From positions 144,360-208,359 of the forward strand of contig JAJYHZ010000001.1 in NCBI GenBank assembly GCA_021796335.1: a DNA stretch of 64,000 bases, in the 5' to 3' direction. Of the stretch, positions 29,971-33,262 are shown one piece after another; the first letter of the stretch is position 1; every line of letters begins with the position of its first letter. Made by a program: the position numbers and the translations under genes. Below the pieces are notes generated by a model, which had not been told where the DNA came from, ran no database searches, and saw only the letters and a program-made list of their open reading frames with translations. The DNA comes from a bacterium (GTDB lineage: Bacteria > Patescibacteriota > Minisyncoccia > UBA6257 > UBA9933).

Positions 29971-30579
29971 TCAGATAAATTGGTACCATCTCTTGTTAGC
30001 AATGTTTTTCAATTTCTCACCAGCGGGAGTATTGTAAACAAATTCGATCTGTTCTGAGATTTGGCGCAAGATTCCCTGCGTTGTATTCATAGGATCAATC
30101 ACAACCTGTAACGTTTGAAAATTCTGCCCGGAGTTTTGGTCGGGTACGGCTGGTACCATCGGACTGATAGGTGAAACTGACGACCCGGACGGGATAAGTA
30201 CTGACTGTGATTGCGCGGGAAGATTTTTAAAATCAGATATTTTTTCGATAAGAATATCTATATATGCTGCCTTTGAATAAAATTGGCTTATTAAATCTAT
30301 TTCGCTCTCTTCTAATCTATTAAGAAAAAGATGGATGCTGTCATTCCAACTGTTTGTTGGGAGCAACTTTGACGAAAGAGCGTATCCACGGTGGCCGCGA
30401 TCTGAATTTCTAATCTGTAGTTCTGCATATCTAATTTCTTGCAATATCAGCCTAGCGGTTTCTCTCTTCTTGTCCATCCTCTGTTTGAAATAGAGATAGA
30501 TGGCAAGAAAACCAACTAGGGCTACAAAGAAATTAGAATCGAAAAATGAAATAATATATTGCATTGGGATTATTTCCAC
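29971..30579 (-). CDS. Membrane-anchored hypothetical protein (N-terminal TM helix)
   Basis: ORF with an N-terminal hydrophobic segment; overlaps the upstream protease gene by 10 nt. Confidence 0.5.
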   Translation of the reverse strand: MEIIPMQYIISFFDSNFFVALVGFLAIYLYFKQRMDKKRETARLILQEIRYAELQIRNSDRGHRGYALSSKLLPTNSWNDSIHLFLNRLEESEIDLISQFYSKAAYIDILIEKISDFKNLPAQSQSVLIPSGSSVSPISPMVPAVPDQNSGQNFQTLQVVIDPMNTTQGILRQISEQIEFVYNTPAGEKLKNIANKRWYQFI

Positions 30580-31595
30580 CCTTGTCCTATTACCTTAAAT
30601 CCGACCTGTTCCTGCGGAAGCTGAATCGGCCCCTGTGGTGTCTGCTGAACAACATTCACTTGTTGCTTGCGATACTCAACATCCATATCGTAGTAGTTCG
30701 ATATATCATGGCTCTCGATATAAGCGATTTTATAGTTCTTTTTGTTTTGCATCACGTTCGCTCCAAGCTCCGTTTCGGGATTCCAAATTTTGCCGAACTC
30801 CAAATCTTTATTATATTCCTCATAGAGATCGGTCATCAGCTTCGCCAGCGTCGCATCGGCATCAACAACCGTCGTCAGCCCCAGATCGTCCTTCGCTTCT
30901 CTGCGGCCGATAAAATACTGATGTGAATAAAGTTTTTCAGTGAAGTAGTCCACGATTTTATCAACTACCTCCTCCTTCATCGCAACCTTGTGACTCTTTA
31001 GTAAGCGCTTTGCTAGCATACGGATAAGATTGTGGATACGGTTCACGTTGCCAAGCGCCAGCGGATGAATTTGCGGATTCGACTCCACAAATTTCGTGAA
31101 AATCTTGGAAAGTTCCTCGTCACTCTTGATGCCAAACTTATTTTTGGCAAGATCGAAATATGCCATCACGTCCTCAACGCTTATTGGGATGCGATTCTGC
31201 GCGTTTGCGGGATCGACAGGATTAAAGACATTAGCCGTGGATGGATCAATCGGCGAAAGTTCCGAAAGGTCGCTCATGACGATTTCGTCCGCACCGAGCG
31301 AGATCATAGTTGCCGCACTGTGCGCCTTGTAAGGTATAAGCACCGAAAACTTATCGCAGTGCTCGCGAATCATAGAAACTAACCGCCACGGTACCATCGT
31401 GTCGCCGCCCGCACTGTAAAGGAATAGGTCTATATTCTGGGTCTTGCCGATTTTTTGGAGCTGCTTGCTGATATGCGGAATAATATCCGGCGCGATGCGG
31501 GCGTTAAACGGCCCCTGTCGGTCGCTTGTAAGATATGAGATAACACGGGACTTCCTTGCGGTTTCTATCTGTTGTATGAGCTGTTTTCTATCCAT
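30570..31595 (-). CDS. Clp-fold (ClpP/SppA/NfeD-like) serine protease, SDH-family-like
   Basis: LYSAGGDTM...KAHSAATMISLGAD resembles the ClpP GG...AAS(M)GA active-site region; 341 aa. Confidence 0.6.
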   Translation of the reverse strand: MDRKQLIQQIETARKSRVISYLTSDRQGPFNARIAPDIIPHISKQLQKIGKTQNIDLFLYSAGGDTMVPWRLVSMIREHCDKFSVLIPYKAHSAATMISLGADEIVMSDLSELSPIDPSTANVFNPVDPANAQNRIPISVEDVMAYFDLAKNKFGIKSDEELSKIFTKFVESNPQIHPLALGNVNRIHNLIRMLAKRLLKSHKVAMKEEVVDKIVDYFTEKLYSHQYFIGRREAKDDLGLTTVVDADATLAKLMTDLYEEYNKDLEFGKIWNPETELGANVMQNKKNYKIAYIESHDISNYYDMDVEYRKQQVNVVQQTPQGPIQLPQEQVGFKVIGQGWK

Positions 31596-31647
31596 AATAT
31601 TTCTATTTTACAGCATTTTAGGAAAATTTTCCACCGCCCCACCCATA

Positions 31648-32136
31648 CTATTGCGACCCAATTATCCAATCCTTTTTGAGTAGCAAGTAACTCACGATGG
31701 CGACGACTAAACCTATACCAAGCGGCGGCGACAGGAAAAGAATAAGCCGGATGATGTTATAGAAAAACGAAATGATTTGATTGAGTAGCCAAACGACAGC
31801 GATTACGATGGCCAGCATTATGAGGCACATCGTCAACCAAAATATCTTTTTCACGCCTCTGTGTAGATCACGATCTATCTTTCGGAGATGCCAAAGATTT
31901 TTGTAAAAATCTGTTTTGTAGTAGAGGTACGCGCCGGGGCCACCAAAGACAAGGGCACTGTAAAGCCCATATTCGAGGGGCGTAGAAATCGGAGAGATGT
32001 TCGTCCACACGAACGTTCCGCCAACGAAAAAGTGCCAGACGAGGAACGCAAGAGTGGAGGTTACGACAAAGATGGCTCCTGAAATAATCTCACGCCTATT
32101 CTTCTTGAGGACTTCTTTAGGCCAGTTCGGGTTCAT
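31648..32136 (-). CDS. Integral membrane protein, hypothetical
   Basis: Multiple hydrophobic helices. Confidence 0.5.
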   Translation of the reverse strand: MNPNWPKEVLKKNRREIISGAIFVVTSTLAFLVWHFFVGGTFVWTNISPISTPLEYGLYSALVFGGPGAYLYYKTDFYKNLWHLRKIDRDLHRGVKKIFWLTMCLIMLAIVIAVVWLLNQIISFFYNIIRLILFLSPPLGIGLVVAIVSYLLLKKDWIIGSQ

Positions 32137-32191
32137 TTCAGCCCAACATATGACAGGGCTTGAAAGAAGTCAAACAAAATAAGTAGGCCAC

Positions 32192-32440
32192 CTATTGTCC
32201 GCGATAGGTAAAATCTATGTGCGCCTCTTGCCCATATCTTTCATGCACCCTAGCTGTCGCTTGACTCCGCGCAAATTCTTTGGCCGCTTCAGCAGTGGGA
32301 AAACTTGTTCCAACAGGAGCATCAAGATTTTCGGTGTCCACTCCGCCATTGCCGTTTGGCCCGACAATATTGATCCTCGACCTGTAAGTTCCATCAATCT
32401 GAAATGTCGAGATTTCTACTCTCACGTCCATCGTTATCAA
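32192..32440 (-). CDS. Small hypothetical protein
   Basis: ORF only; start abuts the upstream gene stop. Confidence 0.4.
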   Translation of the reverse strand: MITMDVRVEISTFQIDGTYRSRINIVGPNGNGGVDTENLDAPVGTSFPTAEAAKEFARSQATARVHERYGQEAHIDFTYRGQ

Positions 32441-32842
32441 TTATTTCGTTTCTATGACGATATTCGCCTTCTTAAATTTATTCCCAGCAATCGGGCCGAG
32501 TATGACATAAACGAGACTGATCAAGAAGGCTATAGTGAAGCCGCCTTGAAATTGGGGTCCATTCGGAGAAAGGGAGTAGATTAAGCCCACAAGTACCCCG
32601 GTAACTATCACGCCGATAATCATAAGGATGCCAGCGAAGATTGAAAGTCCAACCGGCTTATATTCAGTAGCGAAAATGACGATGCCAAGAATCAAGCCGA
32701 TGAAATACGTGAAGGAGAAAGGCAAAATGGTCGCCCATCCAGGTACGGTATTTATCCACGGCATAAAATACGCTATGACGGCTATGAGCACTAAGATGCC
32801 GTAAGTTATTCTCCATCCAGACATACTGTAATTATATACCAA
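32441..32842 (-). CDS. Integral membrane protein, hypothetical
   Basis: Four predicted TM helices. Confidence 0.5.
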   Translation of the reverse strand: MVYNYSMSGWRITYGILVLIAVIAYFMPWINTVPGWATILPFSFTYFIGLILGIVIFATEYKPVGLSIFAGILMIIGVIVTGVLVGLIYSLSPNGPQFQGGFTIAFLISLVYVILGPIAGNKFKKANIVIETK

Positions 32843-32950
32843 TATGAGTCCTAATTAAGGGAGGAATTTATACACCTCTTGCCCGCGCAACGGGAGGGTT
32901 GGGGCAAGGGCAAGAAACCGCTAATCTTCCGTCTCCGACGGCGCTAAAGT

Positions 32951-33262
32951 TTAGGTATATTTGGACGACGACCTGTCTAGCTTGGCGTTTATATATCTAC
33001 AAAGTAGGACAATTAGAATAATAATTATCGAGGCGACGATATATGAGAAGAGATAATCTTCCCAAGCATGGCCGAGATAAAGATGTATGACGGCGACTGG
33101 GATTATGTTCAGGATGAGTGTTCCGGGTAACGCCAGTAAATATATAAAATCCACAGATAGGGATTGCCCGGTAGGTGCTATCAAAAAATAAAGCCACGAT
33201 AGGCCGATAAGCAGCCAGTAGATTCCAACAGAAATTGAGGCATATTTAATCCAACCCTTCAT
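32951..33262 (-). CDS. Small membrane protein, hypothetical
   Basis: Three hydrophobic helices. Confidence 0.45.
   Translation of the reverse strand: MKGWIKYASISVGIYWLLIGLSWLYFLIAPTGQSLSVDFIYLLALPGTLILNIIPVAVIHLYLGHAWEDYLFSYIVASIIIILIVLLCRYINAKLDRSSSKYT

Follow-up and report, generated by a model that had tools for sequence, protein, structure and literature searches.

What does a ClpP-like serine protease do beside a small membrane protein when no ATPase accompanies it, and how many of the genes around the two belong with them? The question is raised by positions 29971-33262 of a 64,000-nucleotide (nt) stretch of contig JAJYHZ010000001.1 (assembly GCA_021796335.1, forward-strand positions 144,360-208,359) from a member of the Patescibacteriota, the whole of which is referred to here as the window. 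An earlier note on this DNA had described six minus-strand open reading frames (ORFs) in this interval as one membrane module, and all six are indeed there. Our analysis reduces the functional unit to a two-gene operon with its own promoter, made up of a protease and a single-pass membrane protein (hereafter the partner), which together are accessory cargo in a variable slot of an integrative, plasmid-like element at a tRNA-Asn gene. The pairing and its carrier are undescribed, whereas the protease belongs to a family already known and named (PF01972), so that the novelty claimed for the module holds for the former and not for the latter. The features of the interval are as follows, with lengths in amino acids (aa).

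29971..30564, minus strand: partner, 197 aa from ATG 30564 (202 aa if GTG 30579 is used), one N-terminal transmembrane segment
30570..31595, minus strand: SDH-type Clp-fold serine protease, 341 aa, soluble, no transmembrane segment; PF01972
31605..31633, minus strand: promoter-like TGGAAA-N17-TAAAAT from a sequence scan, about 10 nt upstream of the protease ATG
31648..32136, minus strand: multi-transmembrane protein, 162 aa, three to four transmembrane segments, loosely linked to the protease
32192..32440, minus strand: soluble ORF, 82 aa, no transmembrane segment, no homologue found, outside the conserved unit
32441..32842, minus strand: ORF of 133 aa, four predicted transmembrane segments, no homologue found, outside the conserved unit
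32951..33262, minus strand: ORF of 103 aa, three predicted transmembrane segments, no homologue found, with a promoter-like site (33302..33273) and a hairpin upstream

Transmembrane segments were counted by a hydropathy scan of the six ORFs, which bears out the three small multi-transmembrane proteins and the soluble 82-aa protein said to precede the protease. Since database homologues exist for the protease (2671), the 202-aa form of the partner (180) and the 162-aa protein (4), these three are real genes.

The protease has the ClpP/SppA-like active-site region for which it was originally singled out, with GG at residues 63-64 and HSAAT at 92-96. The suggested search with SDH-family hidden Markov models gave a match to PF01972 (SDH_protease) over residues 2-123 at 50 bits, above the cut-off of 31.3 (E 2.8e-13). 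NF047768 ('SDH family Clp fold serine proteinase') matched at 66.8 bits, short of its equivalog cut-off of 250, and ClpP (PF00574) stayed at 13.9 bits, under the threshold of 20.2; by sequence, the protein is thus a divergent subfamily of the named SDH family and not an equivalog. Its best match among the PHROG families is phrog_11747, a family of unknown function (E 2e-38). An alignment of 52 diverse homologues (36-76% identity) has G63, G64, S93, T96, G182, H225 and W340 invariant and D117 nearly so (at least 90% of sequences), with no invariant Lys. The proposed catalytic Ser, Asp and His are therefore kept, and they would form a triad, Ser93-Asp117-His225, with GG63-64 as a putative oxyanion-type element; the Ser-Asp-His order is the source of the family name, and its conservation predicts an active enzyme. 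Structure prediction followed by a Foldseek search, as the earlier note had advised, returned a confident Clp fold: the AlphaFold (AF2) model (predicted local distance difference test, pLDDT, 95.7; predicted template-modelling score 0.91) divides into a Clp-type core (1-135), a helical domain (140-277) and a long three-stranded C-terminal sheet, and its nearest solved folds are SppA and ClpP (E about 3e-5, template-modelling scores 0.39/0.55). Among viral models the nearest was a giant-virus 'serine dehydrogenase proteinase' (E 2.5e-11, template-modelling score 0.56). By profile, the nearest solved structure is the NfeD protease domain PH1510-N (2deo/3bpp), a weak match of about 75 residues in which the nucleophile Ser is aligned (E 3.6e-4); the resemblance to NfeD/stomatin pairs that had been suggested thus stands for the protease domain only, as the partner is not an SPFH protein, and a Pfam scan found no NfeD domain in the protease. 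Neither a signal peptide nor a transmembrane segment was detected by hydropathy, and a scan of 17 flanking ORFs revealed no AAA+ ATPase, in agreement with the earlier observation that no ATPase partner is present. We predict a soluble, ATP-independent SDH-type Clp-fold enzyme.

How far the unit extends is seen by comparing loci (cited by our own numbers, L001 and so on, where they must be told apart). Many other protease loci have a promoter-like TTGAAA-N17-TAAAAT whose end lies some 10 nt ahead of the ATG, while the gene content upstream varies from one locus to the next; having its own conserved promoter, the protease begins its own transcription unit, separate from the upstream ORFs. Downstream, 60 of 82 loci have a gene in the same orientation that starts no more than 120 nt beyond the protease stop; the distance is usually about 40 nt or less and often below 10 nt. 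Dozens of unrelated families occupy this position across loci, the commonest being the partner family (13-17 of 82 loci), and the second DUF6941, usually followed by a transmembrane and coiled-coil protein (9-10 loci). Three elements make up the conserved core: the protease, the promoter that precedes it and a gene close behind it.

A six-gene module, by contrast, was rejected as a conserved unit, given the separate promoter of the protease, the unmatched small ORFs and the rare recurrence of the 162-aa ORF; what recurs elsewhere of the proposed gene set is protease plus partner, in the 13-17 loci just mentioned. The 103-, 133-, 82- and 162-aa proteins had no tblastn match in 11 sibling elements (described below) or 86 other protease loci, and the first three had none in the family libraries. 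The 162-aa protein has its 4 homologues among 5.8 billion clusters, and it recurs with the protease in one other lineage only (L113/L114), where the closest homologue (72%) lies directly before a protease (85%) and a 195-aa protein of the partner family (34%). This three-gene block of about 2.2 kb has inverted repeats of about 119 nt on either side and is 99.96% identical between the two samples while the flanks differ, as if it moved as a cassette. Another homologue of the 162-aa protein, 56% identical, has no protease nearby.

The partner family comprises 180 homologues without a Pfam match, and its alignment has 19 invariant residues. A conserved transmembrane helix is followed by basic residues, then by a conserved helical region (LILQEIRYAE, KLLPTNSW, IDxISxFYS), a hypervariable Pro/Gln-rich stretch and a conserved C-terminal EFxYNTPxxEKLRxI motif; from the positive charges after the helix, the bulk of the protein should face the cytoplasm. 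This alignment also bears on the start codon. The downstream protein was described as a single-transmembrane protein overlapping the protease, and the single segment is confirmed, but the 10-nt overlap requires a start at GTG 30579, whereas the family alignment favours ATG 30564, which leaves a 5-nt gap after the protease stop and is probably the true start. We attribute GTG 30579 to the conserved C-terminal codons of the protease (GW[KR]-stop), because the same 'MEI/MEV' pseudo-start also precedes unrelated downstream genes. The AlphaFold model of the partner (pLDDT 84.9) is all-helical, with the C-terminal helices packed onto the N-terminal ones and a linker of about 45 residues (approximately 114-157) predicted to be disordered (pLDDT 50-67); it has no significant fold match in the PDB.

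All four genomic contexts found by starting from partner homologues adjoin a protease or protease-like gene. In two of these (L105 and L111/112) the partner directly follows an SDH protease. In a third (L108-L110, 4001-5151) it directly precedes a ClpP-type protein (PF00574, 80.6 bits) with a 2-nt gap, and in the fourth (L117-L120, 3072-4576) it directly follows a 308-aa protein with an N-terminal TT...AADSR, for which the Proteasome match is weak and sub-threshold (E 7e-4). A partner that stands beside proteases of the SDH type, the ClpP type and possibly a proteasome-like type speaks for a genuine functional link and suggests that the protease component is interchangeable, as in non-orthologous replacement. 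Nothing else supports joint action of the two genes as strongly as this pairing with a protease of whatever fold.

The protease itself is far more widely distributed. A search of 1.84 billion cluster representatives (clusters at 50% identity) returned 3619 relatives, 431 of them with E < 1e-30 and most of 320-400 aa with end-to-end alignment; the closest 120 of the 2671 database matches have 79-100% identity, and nearly all of them are 341 aa in length. Among GTDB species genomes, a scan recovered 80 protease loci at 71-85% identity, in hosts that include many classes of Patescibacteria, Nitrospirota, Smithella and other deltaproteobacteria (including megabase contigs), Bacteroidota, Omnitrophota and Gammaproteobacteria. 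Across phyla the protein remains 71-90% identical while the gene is 67-80% identical at the nucleotide level, a combination that indicates strong purifying selection, and nucleotide homology between loci ends at the ORF boundaries, no more than 38 nt upstream of the ATG. The gene is horizontally distributed and accessory; a recent spread of a mobile gene was rejected as an account of this pattern in view of the low nucleotide identity and its restriction to the ORF. At several Patescibacteria loci (L047, L058, L071, L076, L083 and others) the protease and variable downstream genes lie between grpE and dnaK, a position that could be an insertion hotspot or a proteostasis link.

A full-length homologue, 35% identical and named 'SDH family Clp fold serine proteinase' by the NCBI annotation pipeline PGAP, is present in 47 of 5426 complete Escherichia coli genomes. 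It stands alone, on the opposite strand, between the antiterminator Q and the holin of lambdoid prophages, an interval that is a typical site of accessory genes expressed in lysogens. Copies were located at 2229-3224 of L091 and 5001-5996 of L093, and in one strain near iss; one such protein is WP_086714419 of strain SCEC020001.

The claim that the window pair is carried on a mobile cassette proved correct, the carrier being an integrative element with the following landmarks.

25298..26899, minus strand: large serine recombinase, ORF of 533 aa with Resolvase, Recombinase and Zn_ribbon_recom domains
29630..29918, no strand: inverted repeat B, pairing with B' (about 290 nt, 99% identical)
33342..34208, minus strand: Replic_Relax protein, 288 aa, backbone gene of the protease segment (Pfam E 1.2e-23)
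34294..34581, no strand: inverted repeat B', encoding the last 30 codons of a 596-aa recombinase ORF

Repeats B and B' bound a segment with the protease pair and the Replic_Relax gene. Another segment, enclosed by a further pair of repeats (25357-25472 and 29519-29634, 100% identical), holds the serine recombinase and, at 26881-29428 on the plus strand, a compact restriction-modification unit. The proteins of this unit are a controller-like helix-turn-helix protein of 68 aa, a 392-aa adenine methyltransferase of the EcoRI type and a 387-aa GmrSD_N/HNH endonuclease, for which PADLOC gives a REase_II match (E 2e-82). Within 25287-36277, a GAGCA core is common to three junctions (25357-61; 29630-34, inverted; 34577-81), and both recombinase ORFs read across it. 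The half-sites at these junctions join the tRNA-Asn 3' end to A, B' to A in inverted orientation, and B' to the body of the 596-aa recombinase. From this pattern we read an integration by the element's own serine recombinase: the arrangement fits an element of about 9.2 kb (25362-34576), of which the 533-aa recombinase is likely the integrase, integrated between the tRNA-Asn 3' end and an older recombinase-bearing element, and it fits this element carrying an internal inverted copy of its own attachment region. A foreign origin is in keeping with the G+C content, which is higher at 24-34 kb (0.44-0.48) than elsewhere in the window, where it is 0.27-0.39 except in a few 2-kb bins of about 0.40-0.41.

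Homologues of the Replic_Relax protein (87-93% aa identity) occur in 11 metagenome loci, with the same repeats where the contigs reach; five of these sibling elements (L094, L095, L096, L099 and L103) come from JGI peat and bog metagenomes. In the slot held here by the protease they carry type II restriction-modification genes (L094), type III restriction-modification genes (L095) or assorted other genes. One sibling has a simple junction (L099: recombinase, A.B', Replic_Relax), and another (L096) repeats the composite layout of the window at about 88% identity. An assembly artefact was considered as a source of the inverted repeats and rejected, given that the independent assembly L001 reproduces the window sequence and L096 the layout. 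The repeat copies flanking sibling elements are 86-96% identical to those of the window; since the repeats are 99% identical within the window and differ by about 4-14% between elements, those of the window look homogenised. They have no Rfam match to a structured RNA.

Three observations concern the surroundings of the element. Beside the tRNA-Asn gene, just outside the island, a 238-aa ORF (24462-25178, minus strand) matches Proteasome (PF00227, E 9e-8). On the other side, in the stretch of low G+C that lies rightward of the 596-aa recombinase, a full-length LOOT RNA (RF03000) lies at 37788-37907 on the plus strand (84.6 bits, gathering score 46.4). The interval 36000-42000, with G+C of 0.27-0.30, a trypsin-like peptidase ORF (40923-42029) and several ORFs without a family match, is probably the body of the older element, to which the 596-aa recombinase and an excisionase-like HTH_17 gene (36264-36458) belong.

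What, then, might the pair do? We tentatively propose, as the likeliest of the readings considered although it falls short of probable, a conflict module in defence against, or exclusion of, phages and mobile elements, in which the protease would act at the membrane on the exposed linker of the partner. This role is suggested by the genomic company of the gene, namely restriction-modification, toxin-like and recombinase genes, and by its carriage on prophages and elements. The window copy lies 1.1 kb from the EcoRI-type methyltransferase and HNH endonuclease pair. DNA methyltransferases lie within five genes of the protease in 20 of 82 loci, a figure to be read without a computed background rate of restriction-modification genes in these genomes; across loci, type III Res-like helicases, RadC, RhuM and serine recombinases are recurrent neighbours, as are PIN-, Fic/Doc- and HEPN-like toxin genes, recognized by sequence inspection only. 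Mechanistically, the protease would meet the partner at the inner face of the membrane, where the two conserved halves of the partner may pack together, joined by a long, disordered and hypervariable linker that would be the obvious cleavage site. Cleavage of the linker could act as a switch between an inert form of the partner and one active at the membrane; alternatively, the partner may be degraded continuously, and the end of this degradation when the protease is blocked could trigger the same switch. A broader version, which we consider unlikely, would make the pair one instance of a protease-gated membrane effector system for abortive infection or exclusion, in which linker cleavage arms the partner and the chambered protease is interchangeable (SDH, ClpP-type or proteasome-like), widespread in candidate-phyla-radiation bacteria and with stand-alone relatives in E. 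coli prophages.

Several results weigh against a conflict role. Purifying selection as strong as that described above is unusual for defence genes. No component model of PADLOC-DB 2.0 matched the protease or its partner, nor did any match the upstream ORFs, the homologue from E. coli or the alternative partners seen most often; this also bears out the earlier statement that the locus matches no described system. About nine loci lie inside or beside the hrcA-grpE-dnaK-dnaJ cluster and could point to proteostasis instead. The remaining points concern the pairing: the protease may act by itself, as 22 of 82 loci have no gene close behind it and the copy in E. coli is solitary; protease identity is 0.783 within a partner type and 0.780 to others, showing no co-variation; and membrane proteins are not enriched downstream, at 35% of +1 positions against a background of 29%. 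Membrane partners as a general theme were accordingly rejected, the 55% of loci with a transmembrane protein at +1 or +2 being likewise no more than the 29% per-ORF background predicts.

The first rival explanation takes up the proteostasis hint and makes the pair a membrane-tethered housekeeping peptidase, with the partner anchoring or regulating a chambered, ATP-independent protease that clears signal peptides or damaged membrane or secreted proteins, like SppA or NfeD/STOPP. The closest solved relatives, SppA and ClpP by fold and the NfeD domain of PH1510 by profile with the catalytic Ser aligned, favour this view, as do the heat-shock loci, the very strong purifying selection and the adaptor-like occurrence of the partner with several protease types. 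Set against these are the patchy, horizontal distribution across phyla, the carriage on integrative elements and prophages, the variability of the downstream genes, absent altogether from close range in the 22 loci, and the lack of a signal peptide or transmembrane segment in the protease; moreover, the genes downstream of it at the heat-shock site change from genome to genome, as expected of an insertion hotspot. On balance, we hold a housekeeping role to be somewhat unlikely.

If instead the protease works alone, the genes behind it, the 197-aa protein included, would be unrelated cargo, accumulated at the margin of a variable hotspot downstream of a gene that is conserved and well expressed. 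The dozens of unrelated downstream families, among them restriction enzymes, an IS200 transposase, HisG, AccA and GatC, are what this explanation would lead one to expect, as are the stand-alone copies and the absence of co-variation between protease sequence and partner type. It is harder to reconcile with the consistently short spacing to the downstream gene, with a partner that in four of four contexts adjoins a protease or protease-like gene (in two of them not of the SDH type), and with the block of protease, partner and 162-aa protein in L113/L114 that moves as a unit with its inverted repeats. We judge a protease acting alone to be unlikely.

A stabilisation module of toxin-antitoxin type, in which the membrane protein, or else the protease as in ietAS, would be toxic and the other component neutralising, would suit cargo of a plasmid-like Replic_Relax element with PIN-, Fic- and HEPN-like genes as frequent neighbours, and ietAS, as cited in PMC13069673, offers an earlier case in which a serine-protease toxin has a second protein as its counterpart. 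However, a stable protease that degrades the toxin would give no post-segregational killing, sibling elements without the pair carry other cargo in its place, many copies are chromosomal and stand-alone, and family searches found no similarity to a known toxin or antitoxin, so that this role appears quite improbable. Finally, a remnant phage head-maturation (prohead) protease, suggested by weak matches to ClpP-related head-maturation families (NF045542, 37 bits against a cut-off of 120; phrog_1684, E 8e-8), is very improbable, given the far better match to phrog_11747, a Ser-Asp-His order that is not that of ClpP, purifying selection on the full-length protein, the absence of capsid, portal and terminase genes beside the protease in loci with recorded gene calls and among the recurrent neighbour families, and the position of the E. 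coli prophage copy on the opposite strand between Q and the lysis genes.

The locus matters because the SDH family is very large, with members as far apart as candidate-phyla-radiation bacteria, E. coli prophages and giant viruses, and has been named by NCBI, yet no functional study of it was found in the literature searched, and searches on links to defence gave nothing relevant. To this family the locus adds a minimal conserved unit, made up of the promoter and the two genes, a family of partner proteins that accompanies chambered proteases of more than one fold, and a tractable E. coli homologue, which together make the function of SDH proteases directly testable. Should the conflict role be true, a logic of protease plus membrane effector would be added to bacterial immunity, and there would be a first candidate for a system enriched in Patescibacteria, of whose accessory biology very little is known; should the housekeeping role be true, a new membrane-tethered peptidase would be defined.

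Compared with known systems, the window protease is closest to the SDH proteinases (PF01972, formerly DUF114/SDH_sah; NF047768; MEROPS S49-related), with which it shares a pass of the same Pfam threshold, the Ser-Asp-His order and the Clp fold. It differs from them in that the Pfam domain covers only residues 2-123, and that its subfamily adds the helical domain (about 140-277) and a C-terminal beta-sheet ending in the invariant Trp340. SppA (S49) and ClpP (S14) are chambered, oligomeric peptidases of the same fold; SppA, however, is membrane-anchored and uses a Ser-Lys dyad, while the window protease has neither an anchor nor an invariant Lys, and ClpP has the order Ser-His-Asp and needs an AAA+ partner, whereas the window protease has Ser-Asp-His and no AAA+ protein among the scanned ORFs of the island. 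In NfeD/STOPP and stomatin (PH1510/PH1511 of Pyrococcus), as here, a Clp-fold serine protease lies beside a membrane protein on which it possibly acts, but NfeD is membrane-embedded, with a Ser-Lys dyad and a C-terminal OB (NfeD) domain, in contrast to a soluble enzyme with a predicted Ser-Asp-His triad, and its partner is an SPFH/Band-7 protein in place of a single-pass helical bundle without a Band_7 match. Gasdermins with their adjacent proteases, BREX BrxL and ietAS have no sequence or fold similarity to the window pair, and the partner, all-helical and without a significant fold match, does not have the gasdermin fold of a gasdermin-type operon; what these systems share with it is the logic of the operon, a protease beside a membrane-targeting protein with a cleavable region, cleavability being proposed here for the linker, in a defence-rich context.

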